A stretch of DNA of 64,000 bases from Terriglobia bacterium (lineage in GTDB: Bacteria > Acidobacteriota > Terriglobia > 20CM-2-55-15), in contig CAXWPJ010000002.1 in the NCBI GenBank assembly GCA_963664115.2, forward strand, positions 768,001 to 832,000, in the 5' to 3' direction. The notes beneath the pieces were generated by a model that was not told the origin of the DNA, ran no database searches, and saw nothing but the letters and a program-made list of their open reading frames with translations. A program made the position numbers and the translations under genes. Shown in pieces: positions 1 through 11,378 of this stretch (within the stretch, counting starts at the first letter, position 1; each line of letters begins with the position of its first letter).

Positions 1-214
1 GATCCGGCTTTACGAGCAAGTTGCATCGAGTCAATGCATCGGAGACTGCGTTCGACGTTGGATCGTATGGATTGATAGTGATGTCCGATATCGAATGCAC
101 TATAGTGATCGAAAATGCGGGAGTGCGCGCAACCGGCTTTGCCGCGTCGCCGGATGTGGAATGCTCTCACAATGAAGAGCCGGGCCTGCGTTCACGATTT
201 TAGGAGTTGAAACA

Positions 215-1210
215 ATGCAACGAATCACAAGGAATCCATATTTGATTTTTCCTTTGGGCGCTGCTGCTTCAATGGCAGGCCTGGTGATCTTGTCTCTCCT
301 GAGAGACGATCCTCTCAGTGTCAATATTCCTTTTGTCGCCTTTCTAGCTTTGGTGCCGCTAGTGGCTGGGTGGTACTCCTTCAGCACAAGGTCACGCGCC
401 AAACGAGGCTGGTGGATACTGCATTGGCTCGGGACTACGGTTCTCGGCGTTTTGGCAGCTGGCATCGTATTGTTTGGCTCATTGATCTTGATTCCACCTG
501 GACCTTACGAGGCATACAACTACGCTCACTTTAACTTTGCGGCATATGACTCGGTATCAGGACAACGTGTGAGCGTAGGAGGGGAGGCGCTGGATGCGAC
601 TCTCTATACGCTGGAGGAAGACAATGTGAAGCTTTCCGACCTCTGGGCGGAGAGGCCGATCGTTCTGGAATTCGGAAGTCTCACCTGACCGGTTTTCTGT
701 GCAAAGGTTCCCGTGATGGAACCTCTAGTGAGAGCTTACGAAGGCAAGGCTGATTTTTACGTGTTGTATACGCGGGAGGCTCACCCCGGAGAAAACTATC
801 CAGCACACGAGAGTTTTTCCGACAAAATGAACGATGCGCGGGATCTCAAACGGTTTGAACCAGTTGAGCGGACAATTTTGGTTGACGACCTGGAAGGAAC
901 CATGCACACAGACTATGGCGCCAGGCCCAATTCTGTGTATGTGATTGGGAAGGATGGGATCATCCTGTTTCGGGCGGACTGGAACGATCCGGAGGCGGTG
1001 CAAGTCCAATTGGATCGACTCTTGCAGAACGATGGCAACGCTTCCGGTTTAGAACCGGTCGATATAACAGACGATTTTACGGGTATCGATGGTGGTGCTG
1101 TGAACACAGCTATGAGAGTCATGAAGCGTGCGGGATATACTTCGATTGTGGATTTCGCGGTCTCTTCCATGAATTTGTTTCAAGGTCGGATTGCTGCACA
1201 GCGCAATTAA
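215..1210 (+). CDS. Membrane-anchored iodothyronine deiodinase-like (thioredoxin-fold) selenoprotein, Sec at TGA 686-688
   Basis: ORFs 215-688 and 713-1210 are in the same frame. Read-through gives VLEFGSLT-U-PVFCAK...YVLYTREAHPGE, matching the deiodinase motifs FGSCTUPxF and YIxEAH. About 3 N-terminal hydrophobic helices. Confidence 0.85.
705..724 (+). promoter_or_regulatory. Candidate bacterial SECIS hairpin
   Basis: AGGTTCC-cgtgat-GGAACCT, a 7-bp stem starting 17 nt after the in-frame TGA. Confidence 0.6.
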
Positions 1211-1236
1211 CTCGCTTCACGTTGAAATCGAGTTAA
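1207..1236. terminator. Inverted repeat at the convergent junction, possible terminator
   Basis: TTAACTCG(cTTCA...TGAAat)CGAGTTAA overlaps both stop codons. Confidence 0.35.
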
Positions 1237-1364
1237 ACGGTCAGCGTCTTGATGGCAACTTCACGCCCAAGTTTAGTATCCTTCGCACGCCACACCTCTC
1301 CCATTCCTCCCTTACCGAGGAGTGTGCTGATCTCGTAATGACCGAGTTTGGTGCCGGGCTGCAT
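1233..1364 (-). pseudogene. N-terminal relic of a Ser/Thr protein kinase (43 aa)
   Basis: Translates as [43 protein letters not shown], with the Gly-rich loop and VAIK lysine. AGGAG RBS upstream. Confidence 0.85.
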
Positions 1365-1375
1365 TCGCCGTGCTC

Positions 1376-3376
1376 CTATTTAAGGACCGCGCTGACTTCG
1401 GCTTGCACGACGAGGCGGTCTGCGTCGTCCTGGAGAAGGTATCGTCCGCGCACCAATCGGGCGGCGGCTGCGGACACTTTCGCGACGTAGTTCTCGTGGC
1501 TCCCGTAGCGTTCTTCGAGCGACGGTCTCGGATCACCGACTGCGAGTCGCTCTGCCCTGGTCCTGGCGAATGGAATGTAGCCACCGGCATTGGTCCGAAT
1601 ATGGCCCTTGTAGAACCCACTGGCAGTCGTATTCCAGCCCGTGTACGTTCCCAGAGGAACCTGGTGGAGCACGCTGGCCACTCCACTGACCTCGTTCCCA
1701 TCGGCGTCGACCGTTGGCACTACTGTGGGAAGCACTTGGCGAATCGGAGGAGGCTGGATCGTGATGACTCCCGAGAGGTCGTTGTAATCGAACTGCGTTC
1801 CGAAGTCATATTCGTAAAGTGGGTTGAGAATTCCGTCCGGTATCGGCACACCTGGGATCGTTGGAAATCCAAGCGCGGCCTGTGTAGGTAACGTCAGTTC
1901 TCCTCGATCGAGTCGCGGATATTGACTCGGTGGAGGGAGCGTACCCTGCACGACCCAATCCACTAACGCAGTCTGCAACGCACGCAATGTGTCGCTGGAA
2001 GGATTCGGGTTCGGTGCCAGGTCGCAGCAGGCGTTAGGCTCTGGGTTTGGATCGAATCCGCCGGGTCCACCCCCATGCCTCACTCCCGGGAAGTAATACC
2101 GTCGGACATTCGATGGCAAGGGAATATCGCGGTCAGCCCGAGTGCCCACCAAGTTCGGAGACGCACGCAAGTTGTAGAACTCCGCCGAGCCGAACGTTTC
2201 CACGATCTTGGGACAGGTTTCCGTAGCCTCGCACCGATCGAGCAATCCCGCCGAGGCATGGCCTCGCGCTTCGTCGGCATAATTGGCCCACCAGACAACG
2301 CCATCACTCCCGGCTTCGTACATCGCAGCCGCCCCACCGGGAGCTGCGAATCGGATATTCATTGCCAGGAGGCGAGCGGCACGTTCGGGGTTGCTGCCGT
2401 CGAAAACAATTCGCCCAGCCTCGTCCTGATTGAAGCCCAGGTGAATGAAGCTTCGAAGGAAGTTCCCGGACTGCGAGTTGCCCTGGCTTACCGTCCAGTT
2501 GATCCTTCCGCGCAGAACATTCGGAGCCCCCGCATCGTCCTGGGTTCCGTAGCGCAGATAGGAATTCAGATCTCGCGTTGCAGCAAATCCGATTCCGTGG
2601 ACCTTGGGATCCTTGGCAGTGTAGACAAGCTCGTACAGAAAGGCGGGATTGAATCCGCCCTGGATACAGATCTTTCTCGGATCGGGTGTGCCTGGAAAAG
2701 GGCTCCGACTGCAATCGGCAAAGGCCCACTCTGTGCTGTATAGAGGGATGACAGCACCATGTTCTGAGGCTCGGCGGGTCAGGGTGGCTTGACCCGTATC
2801 GAGCGTGACCGGATCGGCGGTCCCCACAACCCGACCGCGAATTATTGGCAAGGTCGTCGTGTTCGGAGGCATGTCGCTGAACCTGGCGAGCACGGGCCCC
2901 GTGATACTGGATCCATCGGAGTTCCTGGCTATCGGAACAAAAAGCGTCTCCCTACCATCGGCGGGCTCGAGGTCTCCCTGCCACCCACTGGCGACAAGGA
3001 CGTGGCCTTGATTTCGAGCATCGGCGAGGAACCCACCACCGGTCAGATTGATCCGGCCGCGGTTCGGGACGAAATAGAGAAGCGCTCCACTGGCTTTCGC
3101 CATGTCGGTAGGTTTGATGATGGTGAACGTCGCCACGTATTCCACCATCCCTCGCCCGTTGCGTGGAGCAAATTCGAGATCGGTAATGATGGCGTTCAGT
3201 GGGTGCCTGGGGTCCACTTCGCCATAGGCGTGGCCTGTGAGTTTTTCGTATCCATCATCGCCTCTGAGCGTCTCCGTGTGTTCTACTACGAGCCGCGTGA
3301 TCTCAGCCGGGGTGGGATTCGCCACCGTGAGGATTGCCACAGCCACGAGCGTGGCCCTGAAGAGTCGAACCTGCAT
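1376..3376 (-). CDS. Secreted alpha/beta hydrolase domain protein (Abhydrolase_10-like)
   Basis: 666 aa, signal peptide, GNSQSG nucleophile motif, C-terminal [11 protein letters not shown]...LLQDDA typical of the family, AAGGAGG RBS. Confidence 0.8.
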
Positions 3377-3379
3377 GCG

Positions 3380-3445
3380 TTACCTCCTTGATTTCCTGAG
3401 CGGGCCCAGGAATTCGTAGTGGCCGAGTTTGGTGCCGGAATCCAT
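3380..3445 (-). pseudogene. Kinase N-terminal relic ([11 protein letters not shown]...)
   Basis: 21-codon ORF whose first 11 codons match the other kinase starts. Its tail contains the hydrolase RBS. Confidence 0.75.
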
Positions 3446-3459
3446 GTTTAAAGTGTGTC

Positions 3460-3617
3460 GCTGAAAGGTCTCTGAAAAACTCGGTAAACGATACTAGAGG
3501 TGGGTGTTAGAGGCAATCAAAAGGTCAGGCCCTGATAAACGACATTGTCAGACATTGAAAAACCTCAGTAATTTGCCCAATTCTCAACGTCCGACAAGAT
3601 GATTTGTCAGGACTTGA
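3460..3617 (-). repeat. Kinase upstream element: two inverted 34-bp dif-like sites (3525-3558, 3584-3617) plus a promoter-like tail; homologous copy at 33154-33300
   Basis: TCA-ACGTCCGACAA-GATGAT-TTGTCAGGACT-TGA plus an inverted copy with 25/34 identity. The reverse complement aligns with 33154-33300. Confidence 0.75.
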
Positions 3618-3661
3618 CGTCGACTTTTCGTTCCAGATTCGGCGACCACACCTTTCGTTAA

Positions 3662-3695
3662 CGCGGCCGCCGTCGGGTGCAGCCACTTGTTAGGC
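3662..3695 (-). mobile_element. Truncated integron attC site (first half only)
   Basis: The minus strand just after the SRPBCC stop reads GCCTAACAAGTGGCTGCACCCGACGGCGGCCGCG (RYYYAAC core and typical attC start). No complementary second half. Confidence 0.6.
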
Positions 3696-3705
3696 GGCCC
3701 GTTCG

Positions 3706-4221
3706 TCAAGCCGCGAAGTGGTATTTGAGACATTGAGTCTCGGACTCGACCATTCCGGCCAGCATGTCAGACGCTGTTCCAGGCGCGAGCCGTACCTCAC
3801 GGGTAGCCGAAAAGGCTGTGTGCGCCCCTCCAATCCGATTCAGCTCGAGGATAGCGTCGTATTCGAGAACGCCAAGAGCCGGTTCCAGAGCGCGATAGCG
3901 AAGGCGATAACGACCTGCCCCTTCTTCCGCGGTTCGTTCGTAGATCTCCTCTTTCAGCGTGGTGCCTGCCACCTCAAACTGAAATGTTGACGGCACGTTG
4001 TCCGGTCCGCCGCTCAACCACTTGAAATCGCTTGTCAGTCCCGGCAAACCAACGGCAACGAGGCGCTCCCAGTCCCACAACAGTGCCCAGACTTCGGCTG
4101 GAGCGTTGTCGAACGTCGCTGTAGCAACGATCCTGTATTGGTCGGGCCCGGTTACAGTGGTCTCAACATTGACGGCGCCGCGTTCCGATACTGGTTCGCC
4201 CGCGTTACGCTCGTTCGCCAT
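3706..4221 (-). CDS. SRPBCC / polyketide cyclase-like protein (gene cassette ORF)
   Basis: 171 aa with the APAEVWALLWDWE motif. Bracketed by GTTAGGC (minus strand 4256-4250) and GCCTAAC. Confidence 0.7.
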   Translation of the reverse strand: MANERNAGEPVSERGAVNVETTVTGPDQYRIVATATFDNAPAEVWALLWDWERLVAVGLPGLTSDFKWLSGGPDNVPSTFQFEVAGTTLKEEIYERTAEEGAGRYRLRYRALEPALGVLEYDAILELNRIGGAHTAFSATREVRLAPGTASDMLAGMVESETQCLKYHFAA

Positions 4222-4460
4222 ACGAAAGCCTCCCCGTTCCCGTTTGTCTGCCTAACATAGTAGTAGGCTGCGGTCAGACACAGTTAACTCCCCCCGTGCC
4301 TTGCGATCTTTTAAACACGACGCCACCTGCAGCTCCAAAGCCTGTGTTGTGATTTTTCTGTGTCTTATGCTGAGGCAATGCCGCGGAAGAACTGGAATTA
4401 GGCTGCAATGCGATCACCTGGACGTATAGTCGGCTTATCGGAAAGTAGCAGTTTCAATTC

Positions 4461-4494
4461 TCAACGTCCGAGAAGATGATTTCTCAGGACTTGA
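4461..4494. repeat. 34-bp dif-like palindromic site
   Basis: TCA-ACGTCCGAGAA-GATGAT-TTCTCAGGACT-TGA, about 10 bp past a kinase C-terminal relic stop. Confidence 0.8.
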
Positions 4495-4503
4495 CCTCGC
4501 AAA

Positions 4504-4566
4504 TCAAGGCACTGGCACGCGTTCCTTCAGTTCTTCAAACCAGTTGAGGACGATGTTGATTGGACG
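4504..4566 (-). pseudogene. C-terminal relic of a kinase-propeller protein
   Basis: Translates as RPINIVLNWFEELKERVPVP*, nearly identical to the end of ORF 8399-9349. Confidence 0.85.
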
Positions 4567-4597
4567 TTCCGAAACTAAAGGGATGGTTTTTGCGAGG

Positions 4598-6112
4598 TCA
4601 GTTCACGGGGCGGGCGGGAACGTTCTGGAGTTCGGAGACACCCCGGTCGAACAGGTTCCGGATTCTGGAACTGGATCGAAACTCTCTAAGGATCGCGCCC
4701 TGCCGACCTCGGTAAGTTTCGTCGATCACATAAGCCAGAACAGTTGCCATCACCGCGCCTTCCTCGGTGTCGGTCGCATCGAAACGTCGCGCGAAACCCC
4801 GCAGAACGCCCTCGAACTCTGAGTCCTCCCACTGCTCGAGGGTCGCGTCGATCCTGACGAACTCCTCAAGGACGCCAACGTACCGGAGACTGGGCGGGTG
4901 ATGCCAGAACGAAACGTCGGGACCAAACTCCTCGACATAAAACGGAAGATAGAGGTTGGCGTTTGCGGGAACCCGGCGGATCAGCGCGGGATTGTACCGC
5001 CGCACCTCATCGACGGAGAGCCCGGTCTCCCGGGTGACTTCTTCAAGACTGATCGCCCTCGGGACACGCATGGCATAGACCGGAACCTGAGCAATCTCCG
5101 TCTTGAGGTTCTCCACGTTGAACGTGTTGCCAAACACCATCTCCGCATACAGGGAGGAGCGGGGACCGTAGGTCCGGAAGATTTCGCGATAACGGCGCAG
5201 CGAAACCCGGCGCAGTTCGACGGCGAAAGCCGCGCCCAGGAAATACTGCTCCCGGACGTCCCGGCCACCCAACCGCGAGCCGTTGATTACCGTGCGTCCG
5301 ACGTTTGCGGCCCCGGCATGATGCTCCGAAAGCGCCGGAATAAATGATCCATATTTGGTCGCCAGGGTCACCAGGTAGGCGGCACAGTACGGTGCCTGCG
5401 TTGTCTGGTTGTACCCTTCGATGACATGGGAGGCATGCCGCTTGAGCCGATTCCAGTTTCGATCGAGCCACTGGCAGAAACCCAAGGCTCTGGCCTCCGA
5501 ACGGACCTTGCCGTTCAGTCCCGATTCGAGGACGGCCTGGGCCAGACCGATCTCGGCGGGGACGGCAAAGCGTTCGTAGATAGCGCTCCACTCGTCGAGA
5601 AAAGCACCGTAGCGCCGGGCGTTTGGGAGCAAGAAGTTCCCCCGGGTAGAGTTGTGGACGACGGGTCCGACACGGGGCTCGAGAAGCGAGGCAACCAGGT
5701 CGCGGCGCCGGTTCTGGCGCGACGGCAGAGACTCGCCTTCAAGGAGGGACTCGAACGCAGGATCTTTCCAAAGGCCCTCACGAGCCCAGTTTCCCCGGGT
5801 GGGAAACGAGACCAGGAGCCTTCCGTCCACCGCGCTACCAAAAGCGACATGCCCGTCCGGGATCGTGAAGACATGCTGCCAGAACGGATAGGACGGCCGG
5901 AACGCCTCTATCGCCGTAAGATCGCTCTCCAGGCGGGCCCGGGAATACTCGTACGCCGGATGGTCAAAGCGGGGCGGGGCGGGTTCGAGACCAACAGCAG
6001 GAGCGGAAGTCTCCGCGGCCACCTCCATCAGAACCACGTCTCTATGGCCAATATGATCGGACGCCGTCAGAATGACGAGCGTGGCGAGGACGAGGATGAT
6101 GGACTGTTTCAT
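4598..6112 (-). CDS. Lytic transglycosylase (SLT/MltD-like) domain protein with a LysM-like segment
   Basis: Signal peptide MKQSIILVL; AVLESGLNGKVRSEARALGFCQW (ES...GxxQ); SLEEVTRETGLSVDEVRRYNPAL is LysM-like. Confidence 0.65.
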   Translation of the reverse strand: MKQSIILVLATLVILTASDHIGHRDVVLMEVAAETSAPAVGLEPAPPRFDHPAYEYSRARLESDLTAIEAFRPSYPFWQHVFTIPDGHVAFGSAVDGRLLVSFPTRGNWAREGLWKDPAFESLLEGESLPSRQNRRRDLVASLLEPRVGPVVHNSTRGNFLLPNARRYGAFLDEWSAIYERFAVPAEIGLAQAVLESGLNGKVRSEARALGFCQWLDRNWNRLKRHASHVIEGYNQTTQAPYCAAYLVTLATKYGSFIPALSEHHAGAANVGRTVINGSRLGGRDVREQYFLGAAFAVELRRVSLRRYREIFRTYGPRSSLYAEMVFGNTFNVENLKTEIAQVPVYAMRVPRAISLEEVTRETGLSVDEVRRYNPALIRRVPANANLYLPFYVEEFGPDVSFWHHPPSLRYVGVLEEFVRIDATLEQWEDSEFEGVLRGFARRFDATDTEEGAVMATVLAYVIDETYRGRQGAILREFRSSSRIRNLFDRGVSELQNVPARPVN

Positions 6113-6599
6113 CGAACGGCGGCACCTTGAACTCCACCATCGCCGTGGATGCGTTCCCAGCTCTTTCCCATTTTCGACCCTCGCTTCGGGGCCTGCCACA
6201 GATACAGTTGAATTAGGACACCGTTCCCGAAGTGCAGTGGGAATCGGCGGTTCCGTGGACCTCGAGAATTCTCCGACAACGGAGTATATCTGGACGCCAA
6301 ATCACACGCAACAACTGAGCGTGGCCCTCAACGTCCCGAATAGTTCATGCGGACCTATCCCCTCAGACATCTGTCAATGCGAAAGTCGAGGGAATTCTTG
6401 TTGAAACCCGGATTGGAACGGCGCCGGAATAGCGAGACAACCGGGCAGTCCGACACCTGAGCCCTAAAATGGTAACGAAAGTGTTCAGTATCCTCTCGGG
6501 CAATTCTGCTTTGCAGATGTGAGTTCTGTTTCACTTGTTACCGGAGTCTTTCAGTCTGGACGTATGGCCTTCTGTACGTTCGAGGGTGAGGTTCCACGC

Positions 6600-6635
6600 G
6601 ATCTGGCAGCGGCCGGGTTGGGCACCAGATTCCAT
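6600..6635 (-). pseudogene. Degenerate kinase N-terminal relic (MESGAQPGRCQI)
   Basis: 28/36 nt identical to the first 12 codons of the kinase start at 8278. Confidence 0.6.
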
Positions 6636-6707
6636 CATTAGTGCCTCTGCCCGCTCGTTCTGAGCTTCAGAACCAGGGCGTTCGGATCCAGTGCTGAACG
6701 GCGTTCG

Positions 6708-7514
6708 CTATGGATCCAGGCCGCCCGCAGGGTTCCGGATGGTCTGGTTGAAATCCTGCTCGTCGATCGGCGCGAAAATGACCTCGTAGATTTCGGCATA
6801 GGGCGAATCCGGCCCCTGCAGCTTGAACGTTCTCGTATCGCTCGTCCAGGGTTGCGCAAAGATACCGGGGTCGTTGAACGTCATGGTGAATTCGATGGTC
6901 TCGCTGTCCACTCGCCGCCAGCGTTCCTCGAGGCGCAAGGCGGGGCTGGCCGGCGTGCCCCACTCGTCAAGCCAGGCTCGGGAGTCCAGGCCGACGGTTT
7001 CGACCACGAACGTGTCGCCTTCCCAACGCCCAATGGAGTGTCCGTACCACCACGGATCCGGATTCTCGGGCAAATCCCGTCCGTCCGTCCAGATGATTCG
7101 CCATGTGTGATTCCACTCGAAGATTTGTACGACTTTGTCCTCGAACTGAAATGTTTCATGCGGTCTGTTGTATTCCAGCAAGCGCGCCAGACCAACGGGA
7201 TTCGCGCCTCCGAGCGGATCGTTCCCAAACGCTGGGGGTGCGCGTCTTGGCCCTTTTCCCGGCTTGTTTTCGTTGAACGCGGCCAGCCCCTGCGGCGTCC
7301 ATGGCGGTTCCTGGTTGCTCCATTCCGTCAGGCGGATCCCCTCGTCCACCAGGGCGCCGCCTCCGCCTGTTCCGAACATCCATACGCCGGTGAGGTCCTG
7401 CTTATCGAATCCTTGCTGCCCCCCCTGGGCCATGGCCCCAAGCGAAAGGAAACCCAGGGCGAACGCCAACAATATGATTAAACTGATTCCACGATTCTGC
7501 ATCTGAAACTCCAC
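6708..7514 (-). CDS. Secreted hypothetical protein (family usually paired with DUF6152)
   Basis: Signal peptide; RIIWTDGR...GHSIGRWEGDTFVVETVG motif. Confidence 0.75.
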   Translation of the reverse strand: MEFQMQNRGISLIILLAFALGFLSLGAMAQGGQQGFDKQDLTGVWMFGTGGGGALVDEGIRLTEWSNQEPPWTPQGLAAFNENKPGKGPRRAPPAFGNDPLGGANPVGLARLLEYNRPHETFQFEDKVVQIFEWNHTWRIIWTDGRDLPENPDPWWYGHSIGRWEGDTFVVETVGLDSRAWLDEWGTPASPALRLEERWRRVDSETIEFTMTFNDPGIFAQPWTSDTRTFKLQGPDSPYAEIYEVIFAPIDEQDFNQTIRNPAGGLDP

Positions 7515-7530
7515 GTTGTTGAGACCAGTC

Positions 7531-7920
7531 TTACTCGATCGGCAAGAGTTCCTCGCCGTTCACAAACACGGACTCCCGCCAGTCGATCTCCCCAATGGGC
7601 GAGCCGGCCCTAGATGGATACATGTAAAGTCTGACCTCGTCGCCCAGTTCAAAAATGTCTTGGGCATACCCCCGCCTGGCGAACATGCCCGGGCTGAGAG
7701 TCTCCGCGCCCCAATTCACCACTTTTCCATCCGCGCCGGTCACATCGAAGAAGAGCCGAGCGTGTGGATTGGCCCAAACCCACTCGGTCACGGTTCCTTC
7801 CAGCTCGATGGGATTGTCGCGGTCATAGGATATCGCCGTGCCGTGGTGCGCGAACACCGGCCCGGAAACCACAAGAAAGCCCACGAGTAAGGCAAGGCAT
7901 GTTCGGTCCGTCACTTTCAT
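7531..7920 (-). CDS. DUF6152 family protein
   Basis: Signal peptide followed by AHHG...EGTVTEWVWANPH. Confidence 0.8.
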   Translation of the reverse strand: MKVTDRTCLALLVGFLVVSGPVFAHHGTAISYDRDNPIELEGTVTEWVWANPHARLFFDVTGADGKVVNWGAETLSPGMFARRGYAQDIFELGDEVRLYMYPSRAGSPIGEIDWRESVFVNGEELLPIE

Positions 7921-8020
7921 GTGAACTCTCCTAAATAAATGCTAGTTGTAAAATAGATACTTGCCTCTTGTTGGTGAGGGACCGATACGACATCCGCGCC
8001 TCGGCCTGTGGCCGCGCGCG

Positions 8021-8048
8021 GGTTGACATAACACCCATACGACGACAT
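8021..8048 (-). other. dif-like site with a XerD-type arm
   Basis: The minus strand reads ATGTCGTCGTA-TGGGTG-TTATGTCAACC. Confidence 0.4.
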
Positions 8049-8095
8049 TGACAGCGCTGCCATAGCCGTCGGCCGCTGCTTATATCGCTTATCCG

Positions 8096-8278
8096 TAGCT
8101 TGGCTTCACGTTCAAACCACGCGAGTCGATCCGCATCCTTGGCAAACTCTTCAGGAAGCGTCTTGATGGCGACTTCGCGTCCGAGTTTCGTATCTCGCGC
8201 ACGCCACACTTCCCCCATGCCTCCTTTTCCAAGGAGCGTTGAGATCTCGTAGTGGCCGAGTTTGGTGCCGGATTCCAT
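8096..8278 (-). pseudogene. Truncated Ser/Thr kinase (first 61 codons; ORF runs on to 7931 in non-homologous sequence)
   Basis: [61 protein letters not shown] followed by an unrelated tail. Confidence 0.85.
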
Positions 8279-8355
8279 AATTACGGTCTGTCAGAACAGT
8301 GTATAGAAAGCTGGGGGCAGTCTATAGAAGGAGTGGGATAGCAGGCAATGAATTC

Positions 8356-8389
8356 TCAAGGTCCGACAAGATGATTTCTCAGGACTTGA
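8356..8389. repeat. 34-bp dif-like palindromic site
   Basis: TCA-AGGTCCGACAA-GATGAT-TTCTCAGGACT-TGA, about 10 bp past the stop at 8399. Confidence 0.8.
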
Positions 8390-8398
8390 ACTCGAACA

Positions 8399-9349
8399 TC
8401 AGGGTACCGGAACCCGTTCCTTCAGTTCTTCAAACCAGTTAAGGACGATATTGATTTGGGGGCGGGAGGGTTCGCCCGGTTCTGTCTGCCCGCTCGCCGG
8501 CACCCAGGCGAGCGACCCCGAGTCGGAAACAGAGTACTGGGACGGTCGCGTCCGAACACCCTCGAAGAGGGTAACCGGCTCACCCACGGCTTCGAGCGTG
8601 GTCAGATCAAACGGAACCGCGAACAGCACATCATCTAAACCGTAAAGAAGGTGACCGGTCGGGAGATACCGCGGGAATAAACCGGGGAACAGGACCTTTC
8701 TCTCTCCGGATTCCAGCGACTGCACGACGACGTCTCCTTCTACTGGCCCCTCGGCCTGGAACAGCACCGATCTTCCGTCGGGCAGAATCCGAGGCCCATA
8801 AGTAAGAGACGCACCGGAGTCCTCGATCAGCACTTCAGGCGGCCCCCCATTTGCCGAAACCTGCATGACGGTTTCGTTCTGGCCCCACACGATGGTCTCG
8901 TCAGCGCCCCAAAATGGGCGGCCTGTCGGATCGCCGGCAGTATCGGTGAGCGTCACGTGAGTGCCCCCGCTGACGGGAATCTTCTTCAATTGACTGTCAG
9001 CTTCAGACCAGTAGCCAATCCACGCGCCATCCGGTGAAAAGAATGGGTCCGATGGATCGACATCGCTTCCCGGAATAGGGCTCGATACGAGGGTATCCAT
9101 TGCCAACAAATAGAATTGTTGATTGGCTACGTACACCATCATGGAGCCGTTCGGAGAAAGAGCCATAAGCGGGCTGCCTACGAGAGTGAATTGTTGGCCT
9201 TCGGGCAGGACATGAGAAAAGCGGCTGACCTCTAAGGCAGATGGGGCCGGGGAAGGCCTCGAGTTGCAGGCGGCTGTGGCGGCGATCACGGCCAGAACGA
9301 TGGCCGCAGCCCACGGCAGCTTCGATTGCGCTTTGGTACCTGAATCCAT
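8399..9349 (-). CDS. Kinase-less derivative of a Ser/Thr kinase-TolB/PD40 propeller protein, possible lipoprotein
   Basis: Starts MDSGTK, jumps to a hydrophobic helix ending AATAAC, has SPDG/SPNG repeats and ends INIVLNWFEELKERVPVP. Confidence 0.7.
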   Translation of the reverse strand: MDSGTKAQSKLPWAAAIVLAVIAATAACNSRPSPAPSALEVSRFSHVLPEGQQFTLVGSPLMALSPNGSMMVYVANQQFYLLAMDTLVSSPIPGSDVDPSDPFFSPDGAWIGYWSEADSQLKKIPVSGGTHVTLTDTAGDPTGRPFWGADETIVWGQNETVMQVSANGGPPEVLIEDSGASLTYGPRILPDGRSVLFQAEGPVEGDVVVQSLESGERKVLFPGLFPRYLPTGHLLYGLDDVLFAVPFDLTTLEAVGEPVTLFEGVRTRPSQYSVSDSGSLAWVPASGQTEPGEPSRPQINIVLNWFEELKERVPVP

Positions 9350-9428
9350 TGATTATATGTACAGAAAAACGAAATTTGAAAATATGGCTAGATATAACTA
9401 CAGCTTGGATTGATAAGCAAGAAAAGTC

Positions 9429-11378
9429 TCAAGGCCTGAGCCCTTTGCTGAACACTTCATATTGCCGGGCAGCCAAAGGCAATACCAATGCCAGGCCGAG
9501 CAGGTCGGTGATCCAACCGGGATGAATTAACACCACGGCTCCGACGAACACGACCGTGCGTTCCCATCCCGCCAGTGCTGTCCTGGCGTGTCCGATGACT
9601 CCGGCTGCGAGCGCCATGACCCCGATCACGCCTGTCGTTGCTGCCAGGAGAATTTCGGTGGCGGTACCGATCATCAAAAACGCGGGATTCAGCACGAACA
9701 TGAACGGCAGGATGTAGCCGGCAAGGGAAAACCTCCATGCCGTAAACCCTGTCCGCATGATGTCGGCGCCCGCGATCGCTGCGCCGGCATATGCTGCCAG
9801 AGCCGTTGGGGGCGTCACCATCGACATCATGCCGAAGTAGAGAATGAACATATGCGCGCCGATCGGGAGAATCCCCAAGCTCACCAGTGCGGGTGCCGCC
9901 AGGGTTGCCAGCAGGAGATAGCAAATGGTTGTCGGGAGCCCGAGTCCGAGAATCACGGAGGAAAACATCACCAATACCAACGCCGCGTAGATATTCCCGG
10001 CGGACAACTCGAGAATGATGGATGCAAAACGGGAGCCCAGAGCCGTCATCACGGTGATCCCAATGATGATTCCAACCGAGGCGCTGGCGCAGCTGAGAGA
10101 CGTTGAATTATAGGCGGCAGTTTCCAGAACGCTGACGATCCGCCTCGGAGTCAGCCGCCCTCCTCTCACGAACATGCTGGTTACGAAGGTGACGACCAGT
10201 GCAAATGACGCCGCTCTCGGGGGACTGTATCCGGAAAGCATGAGCCCGACGAGGCAGCCCACCGGCAGGACGAACAAGAAAAGCTGAGGGCGTCTCAGGA
10301 TGGTGAGCGCCCGCGCTCCCTGGCCTTCGGGCGACAGGCCACCGATGCCATGACGGACGGAGTAGAAGTGAATCGTCGTAAACAGAGCCACATAAAAGAG
10401 CAGGCCAGGTATCAAAGCCGCTGCGGCGATTCCCAGGTAGGGGACTCCCAGCAACTCCGCCATGATGAAGGCCGCGGCGCCCATCACGGGCGGGATGAGC
10501 TGGCCGCCCGTGGACGCAACGGCTTCGACGGCCCCGGCCACGTGCGGCTGGAAACCGATTTTTTTCATCATCGGAATGGTGAGCGATCCCCCGGTGACGA
10601 CGTTCGCGACGGCGCTGCCGTTGATCATTCCAAGCAGACCGCTTGAAACGACCGCAACCTTGGCGGGCCCCCCTCGAAATTGCCCGAATGCGGCCTGACC
10701 CAGATCAATCGCGAAGTCCAGAGCTCCGACCGTCTGAAGCACAGCCCCAAAGAAGACGAAGGGAAACACGTAGGTAAACATCACCGTCAGCGCGATGCCG
10801 AAGATGCCCTCCATGGTCAGAAACGACTGCGTGAGGATGCGGCTCACGCTGTATCCCGCGTGGCCGCCGATGTATGTGGGCAGATACGCACCGTAATATG
10901 CATACAGGACGAACACCGCGGCAAGGGTCGGAAGCGGCCAGCCGATCAATCTCCGGGTCGCCTCCAAAACAAGCGTCGTGCCCACGGCGCCCATCACAAC
11001 GTCCAGAGTTGTCGGCGTGCCCATGCGGTTGATCAGGCCCTCGTAGTCGACCACGATGTACGCACAGGCGATGATGCCCCCGGCGGCGAAGGCAAAGTCC
11101 AGGAGAGCCCGAAACGGACGCTGCGGACTCCCATCGGGTCTGTCGGTGGGCCGCAGAAAGGACAAGGCCAGCGCGAACAGCAGGAATATCGCGCGCTCCT
11201 GAAACGGTGGCAGCGTAAGCGTGTTGATCTCAAAGAGGACGTAGATCGAAAAGCATGCAGCCAGGACTCGAATCGAATAGCGGTGAACAGTTTCGAAGCG
11301 TGAAGGTCGTGGCCGGGCGGCGGTTTGGACTCCCCCAACGCCGTCGTTCGTGATCATGTCAGCGTCCTTGATGGCCAA
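9429..11378 (-). CDS. TRAP transporter fused 4TM/12TM permease
   Basis: GGPAKVAVVSS, GSAVANVV, STGGQLIPPVMGAAAF and MVTPP motifs. Confidence 0.9.
   Translation of the reverse strand: MAIKDADMITNDGVGGVQTAARPRPSRFETVHRYSIRVLAACFSIYVLFEINTLTLPPFQERAIFLLFALALSFLRPTDRPDGSPQRPFRALLDFAFAAGGIIACAYIVVDYEGLINRMGTPTTLDVVMGAVGTTLVLEATRRLIGWPLPTLAAVFVLYAYYGAYLPTYIGGHAGYSVSRILTQSFLTMEGIFGIALTVMFTYVFPFVFFGAVLQTVGALDFAIDLGQAAFGQFRGGPAKVAVVSSGLLGMINGSAVANVVTGGSLTIPMMKKIGFQPHVAGAVEAVASTGGQLIPPVMGAAAFIMAELLGVPYLGIAAAALIPGLLFYVALFTTIHFYSVRHGIGGLSPEGQGARALTILRRPQLFLFVLPVGCLVGLMLSGYSPPRAASFALVVTFVTSMFVRGGRLTPRRIVSVLETAAYNSTSLSCASASVGIIIGITVMTALGSRFASIILELSAGNIYAALVLVMFSSVILGLGLPTTICYLLLATLAAPALVSLGILPIGAHMFILYFGMMSMVTPPTALAAYAGAAIAGADIMRTGFTAWRFSLAGYILPFMFVLNPAFLMIGTATEILLAATTGVIGVMALAAGVIGHARTALAGWERTVVFVGAVVLIHPGWITDLLGLALVLPLAARQYEVFSKGLRP

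Follow-up and report, generated by a model that had tools for sequence, protein, structure and literature searches.

Kinase gene remnants and dif-like palindromic sites at the edges of exchangeable gene modules in a Terriglobia bacterium

Integrons carry co-oriented attC sites between unrelated genes, and are themselves attacked by IS110-type elements and group II introns. Acinetobacter dif modules, including those of chromosomal dif module islands, are outlined in PMC13141974 and PMC12907356 as modules lying between inverse 11-6-11 (pdif) sites with distinct spacers, which are assembled into arrays, include gene-less modules between facing sites and are exchanged between genomes; insertion sequences (IS) that hunt the sites are outlined in PMC10132070. 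The neisserial dRS3/NIME arrays, along with minimal mobile elements, are presented in PMC1797815 as dynamic arrays of hundreds of short inverted repeats, targeted by a mobile-element recombinase and proposed to be recombinase sites at which exchange with incoming DNA is initiated, to be completed by RecA. In T4-type phages, promoter-bearing cassettes (PeSLs) repeated between non-essential genes are described as leading to modular shuffling (PMC2839356).

The locus considered here lies in the first part of the ‘window’, that is, the whole 64,000-nucleotide stretch of Terriglobia bacterium DNA that was analysed. Stubs of a kinase gene and some 176 palindromic (‘dyad’) sites mark the edges of modules that are found in other places and orders in related species. 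By analogy, the arrays appear to work like Acinetobacter dif modules and neisserial dRS3 arrays, yet they belong to neither class. The 11-bp arms and 6-bp spacer of a dif/pdif site are present, as are arrays, modules flanked by inverse sites of differing spacer, gene-less modules where two sites face each other, module traffic between genomes and IS that seek out the site, but host-like XerC/XerD arms and alternating inverted sites are not; compared with the modules outlined for Acinetobacter (PMC13141974, PMC12907356), arms are only partly host-dif-like, neighbouring sites are mostly direct, the 176 copies are chromosomal, sites go with both ends of a single kinase family, and crossovers do not appear limited to the spacer. 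Short inverted repeats in dynamic arrays, proposed to start exchange and targeted by mobile elements, are common to dRS3 and the present system. The dRS3 repeats, as set out in PMC1797815, have a variable centre and flank short non-coding spacers, whereas here the centre is fixed and the intervals hold whole genes and kinase relics. PeSLs share the repeated cassettes between genes and the modular shuffling, but their stems are described as terminators (PMC2839356), while in the present case the RNA folds weakly, terminator prediction makes no call and coding gene ends form part of the repeat. The likeness to integrons rests in co-oriented sites between unrelated genes, in attack by IS110-type elements and group II introns, and in true attC cassettes inside the arrays; however, the dyad site is of fixed length and lacks attC core motifs and covariation, and no integrase gene (intI) or attI adjoins the arrays, the dyad site nearest to the integron-type integrase (C9:714593) being 195 kb away.

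A preliminary description of the window had proposed that gutted kinase ‘shells’ bracket unrelated cargo genes, with a multicopy kinase family serving as landing pad. Its components proved largely correct (features are on the minus strand unless stated otherwise). Kinase starts are recognisable at 1233..1364, 3399..3445 and 8095..8278, with 127, 47 and 184 nt of homology to the genome's full-length kinases, and the first and last of these stubs match Pfam Pkinase, albeit below cut-off. The start called degenerate at 6635 (6600..6638) is too decayed for blastn, and so falls outside the genome-wide count given below; its copy in G002 is closer to a kinase start. The two C-termini noted as near-identical, at 4504 (a 58-nt relic, 4504..4561) and 8399, are 89% alike over 106 nt. 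Profile searches agree with the cargo families that had been named: a 666-aa Abhydrolase_10 hydrolase (1376..3376), directly preceded by the 47-nt start relic; an SRPBCC (Polyketide_cyc2) gene in an integron-type cassette (3706..4256, core site 4250-4256, by Pfam and sequence); an SLT-domain transglycosylase (4598..6199); and a DUF6152 gene (7531-7920) with its 268-aa partner (6708-7514). After the SRPBCC gene comes a truncated attC-like sequence (3657..3695), whose inverse core we take, by motif, to be 3689-3695; at this position G002 has a full-length counterpart with a SnoaL-like gene instead. A small non-coding element (7994..8095) recurs at kinase-start breaks, sitting at, or a few bases from, the break in 5/56 short kinase starts, with differing break positions. 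Rfam gave no matches to window positions 1-10000.

Other parts of that description needed amendment. Cargo was said to lie on one strand, which is true of the five genes at 1376-7920 but not of the gene pair after the 1364 stub (215-1210, plus strand), and genome-wide the bias is weak, with 145/237 (61%) of long ORFs between co-oriented features lying on the strand of those features vs 55% in the control. That a relic supplies the ribosome-binding site of the hydrolase is plausible, the Gly-loop codons being purine-rich, although the binding site lies a few bases beyond detectable kinase homology. The start at 9349 is real, but it opens an intact 316-aa ORF (8399..9349) that retains the first codons, the membrane/propeller (PD40) part and the C-terminus while lacking the catalytic domain; as this ORF is intact and under purifying selection (dN/dS 0.16-0.27 vs three congeners), we regard it as an internally deleted kinase gene, and not as a shell around cargo.

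In contigs from four studies all 30 bins are represented, and the junction at 1364 is bridged in 3/4 runs, that at 3445 in one, that at 6635 together with the DUF6152 pair in three, and that at 9349 in three; for the 8095 break there was no bridging contig among the matches listed. Since most junctions are bridged in this way, we take the relics to be real, and misassembly is ruled out for the bridged junctions. RNA run X19 yielded short, diverged contigs only.

Across the genome, homology searches recovered 62 starts and 142 C-ends of the kinase family vs ~6 full-length genes. Both ends outlast the middle, with 58 and 66 HSPs in the terminal bins and 13-15 in those between them, in keeping with the proposal of a multicopy family whose ends are kept and whose interior is lost. 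What did not hold is the pairing into shells: starts and ends do not match one to one, a C-end being the next co-oriented feature within 10 kb for 29/56 short starts. No full dyad site lies behind 71/142 C-ends, and 23% of the genome falls within 5 kb of a site or relic. One reading of such a landscape is that an expanded kinase family is decaying in the ordinary way within islands prone to insertion, the dyad being carried along with the kinase 3' flank and the cargo being unrelated island content; arrays are indeed packed with IS, introns and integron cassettes, the strand bias of cargo is weak, and other lineages have truncated tandem kinases without the dyad site. Decay would not, however, keep both ends while dropping the middle, hold 176 sites at 90-98% conservation per core column, or place 32-35% of shared-segment ends at sites or relics (G001 and G002), and we disfavour it as decidedly improbable. 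In the literature searched, there was no report of such kinase relics or of such a dyad site in Acidobacteria.

The landing-pad reading stands as far as multicopy ends and cargo turnover go, but the strongest boundary signal, missed in the preliminary description, comes from a dif-like, non-coding site immediately beyond the kinase ends. It spans 40 bp with a fixed 6-bp spacer (11-6-11), and a PWM finds 176 copies in the genome and none in shuffled DNA; inner bases and spacer are fixed, and the spacer falls into two classes, a (149 sites, 92-99% conservation per spacer column) and b (27 sites). In 71/149 cases a class a site closely follows a kinase stop and shares its orientation, with the centre 26-57 nt away (class b, 0/27), and 19/27 class b sites lie inverted 96-111 nt before a kinase start. 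Four sites fall in the part of the window described above: a class b site on the plus strand (3519..3564, spacer 3539-3544), inverted 97 nt before the 3445 start; a class a site facing it 58 nt away (3578..3623, spacer 3598-3603); a class a site 27 nt after the stop of the 58-nt C-terminal relic (4455..4500, spacer 4475-4480); and a class a site after the 8399 stop, 94 nt before the 8278 start (8350..8395, spacer 8370-8375). Neighbouring class a sites are co-oriented in 99/105 cases, inverted pairs arising only through the 27 class b sites. Replication polarity was rejected as the rule, site strand splitting 92 to 57 when set against local GC skew, with both orientations on one contig side.

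Paired variable columns do not covary (62 observed vs 64.3 +/- 4.9 shuffled, 164 distinct sites) and RNA folding is weak at all four window sites (z -0.2 to -2.0), which together favour a double-stranded protein site; terminator prediction made no call at any of the four, and the one sigma70-like match lies before 9349. Measured against the single canonical host dif (C2:108118-108145), one arm averages 6.8/11 to a host dif arm and the second ~5/11; the canonical inner bases occur in neither arm, and neither arm is of XerD type. A search of 12 same-class genomes with one window copy and a kinase end gave one hit, and the class a pattern has 10 exact matches in metagenome contigs and none in viral contigs.

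The inverted doublets at fixed spacing, with 11/26 class b sites opposed by a class a site 57-58 or 147 nt away, recall REP/REPIN-type hairpins, which would be spread by a RAYT (Y1) transposase and merely prefer kinase flanks. A Y1 gene is found 320 nt from one weak site in G000, and IS110 targeting is known for REPs. Against this stand the lack of covariation, a left flank that is nearly always of kinase origin, and the absence of the dyad site from Y1 loci in relatives (0/20 loci of five relatives, 20 of 27 hits examined); we consider the idea very improbable indeed. Inverted sites also occur at both ends of 20 units, with similarity lost just outside the outer arm, as would fit non-autonomous transposons whose terminal inverted repeats are a class b and a class a site, and whose derivatives, filled with cargo, depend for movement on a transposase acting in trans, in the manner of MICs or Pack-MULEs. 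Yet the target-site duplications of MITEs and MICs are not in excess at the unit ends (4 nt or more in 5/20 units vs 21% shuffled), class a outnumbers class b by 149 to 27, flanks swap inside the site and not at its outer edge, and no full-length unit with a transposase was seen, which makes this explanation improbable.

Whatever moves them, the modules travel. The hydrolase module (1276-3445) recurs at 93% identity in G001, 86% in G004 and 79% in G002, the SLT module in G002 (4477-6650, 94%) and G004 (4506-6499, 95%), and the DUF6152 pair in G001 (72%). In congeners, window modules sit at non-syntenic places with 86-95% identity, core DNA being only 74-84% alike, and the syntenic locus holds other cargo. 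Cargo turnover had been predicted, and neither of the outcomes named in advance as contrary to the landing pad, namely unsupported junctions, or identical cargo in relatives with ordinary kinase decay and without turnover, was found. The cargo is under purifying selection (dN/dS 0.14-0.23 for the Abhydrolase_10 gene, 0.25-0.36 for the SLT-domain gene) and moving between species. Array segments of G002 that are shared with G000 fall in G000 arrays in 84/120 cases (23% expected), with median identity of 93.7% vs 86.6%, and for 53/168 of their ends a site or relic is no more than 70 nt away, where 5.4% is expected; the corresponding figures are 17/29 segments and 12/34 ends for G001, and 25/68 and 5/50 for G003.

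Exchange is also apparent at the sites. Among 230 distinct class a sites, left and right flank columns are unlinked (z -1 to 3) vs values of up to 38 and 14 within one side, and 22 pairs share the left flank only, 36 the right flank only; a further 10 pairs, alike in both flanks, are duplicates with hardly a difference, in part probably from overlapping contigs, and are uninformative on conversion. Flanks swap within the site and spacers are uniform, yet arm variants do not track the flanks, and crossovers appear scattered along the full length of the dyad: at the variable position 3 nt to the left of the spacer, the base goes with the left flank in only 5/15 pairs (background 0.36), and right-arm variants follow the right flank in 8/18 and 12/18 (background 0.52 and 0.46). 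Exchange inside a kinase start, which fits the landing-pad reading, was also observed: one of two pairs among 123 relics is 97% alike over relic and cargo and only 55% upstream, the hydrolase modules of G001 and G004 lose similarity at the start codon, and a contig of run X13 joins 1-1318 to a start like that at 3445, without the hydrolase (short side 28 nt). Shared G002 modules that end exactly at the spacer centre were not counted as recombinase crossovers, because an IS30-like end occupies the spacer at both places, and contig joints between sites (e.g. 4494 to 3578) were rejected as excised circles, their short sides consisting of repeats only.

Crossovers of this breadth, and those within kinase starts, speak for the main rival, a shuffling by portable homology without any site-specific enzyme. 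On this view the junction block (kinase end, dyad, promoter and kinase start) would be a regulatory cassette present in many copies, with the dyad bound by a regulator, and cargo would move through RecA-dependent crossovers at any point of the 40-250 bp that the copies share, as in T4 PeSLs or minimal mobile elements. The almost invariant synonymous positions of the C-ends (99 relics) also speak for it, as does the abundance of kinase ends where matches to the class a pattern, which is spacer-specific, are scarce (52 vs 3 in G042, 30 vs 2 in G041, 46 vs 0 in G004). The rival leaves unexplained the fixed asymmetric 6-bp spacer, the two position-specific classes and the species-specific variant (the spacer differs at the 3 sites seen in G004); nor does a regulatory cassette sit well with 82 different right flanks, few of them kinase promoters, among 123 class a sites, or with a terminator call at 0/4 window sites. 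We hold it to be a possible explanation, though a doubtful one; even so, it would make a clear case of protein-coding family ends serving as portable homology.

We give an even chance to the reading that the window forms one end of an array, carried on the chromosome, of modules open to exchange. In this reading a putative Xer-type site starts the exchanges, and kinase ends arise as a by-product and act secondarily as anchors for homology. Originally, a module probably consisted of one kinase-PD40 gene flanked by a class a site and an inverted class b site; the gene may then have been gutted by deletions and by insertion of IS, integron cassettes or foreign genes, leaving the site-proximal ends in the relic pattern observed. 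Cargo that gained a site or a kinase end could take part in crossovers at class a sites and in homologous crossovers within near-identical kinase ends, and these would stack modules head to tail and move them between loci and species, the flank swap and the mobility being observed and the enzyme presumed. We speculate that exchange starts with incoming or distant DNA, and that junction migration or RecA finishes it. In favour of a Xer-type site are the fixed spacer and inner bases, the position of each class, the co-oriented class a neighbours, the signs of a double-stranded protein site, the unlinked flanks, one arm partly like a host dif arm, the G004 spacer variant, the XerC and XerD counterparts and the C5:52192 gene described below, the parasites aimed at the site, and the shared segments ending at sites or relics. 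Against it, a chromosome with so many sites in direct repeat would be at risk if these recombined efficiently; crossovers do not appear limited to the spacer, neither arm has the inner bases of dif and the second matches host dif arms poorly, half of the C-ends are siteless, and kinase ends are common where class a is rare.

As to the enzyme, Pfam PF00589 has 27 hits in G000, 27 in G002 and 12 in G003, among which none but XerC and XerD is closely matched (79-92%) across all three genomes rich in the site, and we infer that host XerC (C9:863207) and XerD (C2:150458) are the leading candidates. Two class b sites enclose a recombinase gene at C5:52192, and 2/12 loci homologous to it have a canonical dif-like site 85-140 nt upstream; it has no match in G002-G004, occurs in 6/400 genomes of the phylum with a kinase neighbour at 3/12 loci, and is only a minor candidate. 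Six identical G000 recombinases were rejected as the general enzyme, being part of an IS91-type element (recombinases of such elements are noted in 10.1101/542381) with no match in G003.

A broader proposal, which we put forward tentatively, is that, in a lineage of Terriglobia, a kinase gene and the derived Xer-type sites flanking it have become a platform for cassettes across the whole chromosome, with ~200 sites, head-to-tail arrays touching a fifth of the genome, functional genes traded between co-occurring species and given a kinase promoter, and no fewer than four families of parasites that seek out the site. It would rank as a third cassette system, next to integrons and dif modules. 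If Xer-type swapping holds, such a chromosome-wide system would be undescribed. Were the site a recombinase substrate, it would define a gene-acquisition platform on the scale of a superintegron, one that passes for kinase pseudogenes and so goes unnoticed by annotation pipelines; dif-module logic could then run chromosome-wide outside Acinetobacter, and the recombinase-plus-RecA model proposed for neisserial repeats would gain a testable case.

It would also provide new site-specific IS110 elements with a known target. IS110, IS30 and IS91-type elements insert into or beside the dyad site, which is the target of IS110-type ends in 6/7 and 7/7 cases, of IS30-type ends in 6/6 and of IS91-recombinase elements in 8/10 within ~55 nt, vs 9/74 copies of an unrelated IS with a site within 200 nt.

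We find the array phenomenon to be real and genome-wide. Within the 4.89 Mb, 12-contig assembly (G000; window at G000:C2:768001-832000), blastn with five full-length kinase genes as queries returned 62 kinase ‘starts’ and 142 ‘C-ends’, counts that may be slightly raised by several contig-end duplications of 6-16 kb (possible assembly overlaps). Six starts span the whole gene, four of these as intact ORFs (Pkinase + PD40); median relic length is 114 nt for 56 starts and 58 nt for 137 ends, the latter lengths being lower bounds because similarity between paralogues falls off upstream of the terminal motif. At the protein level the kinase middle is still under-represented, with 13-15 HSPs per bin versus 58 and 66 at the ends.

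Within the window, homology to full-length kinases upholds the starts placed at 1364, 3445 and 8278 by the preliminary description, and both of its C-termini (4504 and 8399) stand. The start at 6635 is decayed, yet backed by a copy in the congener G002; that at 9349 is a genuine start, but what it opens is an intact ORF for an internally deleted kinase, kept under purifying selection, and not a shell around cargo. The array extends at least 23 kb leftward beyond the window edge. Coverage of the region by contigs from four studies is even, and these contigs span most of the junctions. At least half of the window's words are present in twelve sequencing runs, with the best holders coming from four studies; a sponge metagenome carries short exact pieces and a seawater metagenome a diverged relative, the nearest named loci being Terriglobia MAGs. 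The C-end itself (4504-4561, 8399-8456) reaches a summed contig depth in the thousands in four metagenomes, and is therefore very common in those communities.

Across genomes, the C-end pattern occurs 104 times in G000, 17-82 times in four congeners and 2-52 times in two sister genera; it is missing from 23 further genomes of the family, which leaves 12 of 35 positive, and at phylum scale 4 of 400 genomes have 1-4 copies. Six loci in other Acidobacteriota and Gemmatimonadota (L008, L014, L015, L017, L025, L028) have full-length kinase-PD40 genes in tandem, the stop of one often overlapping the start of the next, along with short start or end relics; none of the six has a match to the dyad site described below.

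Module mobility between congeners is demonstrated. Copies of window modules, 86-95% identical (one 79%), are present in G001, G002 and G004 at places distant from the syntenic locus; the core genes of that locus are 74-87% alike. The cargo turnover suspected earlier is borne out by synteny: G002 holds ~16 kb of other cargo and two kinase starts versus 47 kb in G000; G001 has 5 kb without relics versus 40 kb; G004 has other cargo; and G003 lacks both the array and the TRAP operon. The module of the hydrolase gene (1376..3376, minus strand) is preceded in G002 by a different integron-type cassette, SnoaL-like. When low-copy segments of at least 500 nt were compared, with kinase-kinase hits dropped and regions picked for holding sites or C-ends, shared segments fell in G000 arrays far above expectation, had higher identity than those outside and frequently stopped at a site or relic. 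G002 and G001 show this strongly, G003 weakly.

A previously unrecognised repeat, a dyad whose two arms enclose a 6-bp asymmetric spacer, accompanies these relics; a matrix seeded by a 45-nt repeat found in the window detects 176 copies in G000 and none in shuffled DNA. Of 149 class a sites, 71 follow a kinase stop and 24 precede a kinase start, and neighbours share orientation in 99 of 105 cases; among 27 class b sites, 19 lie inverted ahead of kinase starts and none behind a stop, and 11 of 26 form a facing pair with a class a site, 57-58 or 147 nt apart. Variable paired columns of the site do not covary, and its RNA folding is weak. The class a pattern numbers 121 in G000, 77 in G002, 46 in G003 and 7 in G001, with 1-3 in four sister-genus genomes and none in the remaining 27 of 35, including G004, where all three sites seen have a different spacer.

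In a set of 230 distinct class a sites, drawn from four genomes (for G001-G003 from selected regions only), left and right flanks are statistically unlinked, and 58 site pairs, few and mutually dependent, share just one flank. Arm variants beside the spacer do not go with their own flank, and the data therefore do not show a clean spacer crossover; a better fit, and the mechanism that we infer, would be several crossovers spread over the dyad, or a junction that migrated following a first exchange of strands. Kinase starts also act as exchange points.

Is a dedicated site-specific system at work? Among PF00589 hits, in assemblies 95-97% complete, XerC and XerD alone are closely common to the three site-rich genomes. 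The one canonical dif candidate in G000 (C2:108118-108145) sits at a GC-skew change; one arm of our site resembles dif at 6.8 of 11 positions, the other little. A tyrosine recombinase gene (L083, G000:C5:51983-53347) is flanked by two inverted class b sites, with divergent kinase starts to either side; its homologues in G024 and G007 are likewise divergent from a kinase start, and a canonical dif-like site upstream of some family members links the dyad site to Xer-type sequences, though the family's presence is patchy. On balance we regard a dedicated system as possible but rather doubtful. Acinetobacter dif modules work similarly (PMC13141974, PMC12907356, PMC10132070), as does the model proposed for neisserial dRS3 arrays (PMC1797815), and the rival explanation, shuffling through portable homology, would work as the PeSLs of T4-type phages do (PMC2839356). 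Of the defining features tested for dif modules, integrons, REP-RAYT and MITEs, each has some that are absent here, and literature drawn mostly from outside subscription papers yielded no description of such a system.

Mobile elements also meet the site. Half-sites broken at or near the spacer (29 left, 58 right; none in shuffled DNA) are in many cases joined to recurrent element ends; the element counts that follow are exact matches of those ends only, since site junctions were the source of the end motifs. Two IS110 families have 6/7 and 7/7 of their ends at the site, and an element carrying HTH_38 and rve, presumably IS30-type, has 6/6. IS91-type elements with an integron-like tyrosine recombinase (G000:C1:92884, C2:196409, C12:570248 and seven more) lie at or just past the site, 8/10 within ~55 nt and three at the spacer edge, and likewise in G002 (L118, L223). 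Four further ends at site junctions are, by motif, what we take to be group II intron-like. For comparison, 9/74 copies of an unrelated 1.9-kb IS lie within 200 nt of any feature; one stands at G000:C9:783528-785403, and the 74 are near-full copies. The IS110 families (L247, C2:753701-755300; L248, C5:47801-49400) have a defined, repeated target and are candidates for bridge-RNA analysis.

At 215-1210 (plus strand), two ORFs of 157 and 165 aa are split by an in-frame TGA (686-688); the second matches T4_deiodinase, and the pair is likely a single deiodinase-type selenoprotein. G004 contains the unit 69-1340 as well, at 89%. A small non-coding element (7994-8095) is present at five kinase-start breaks and, in opposite orientation, adjoins one C-end, with copies in G002 and G004 too.
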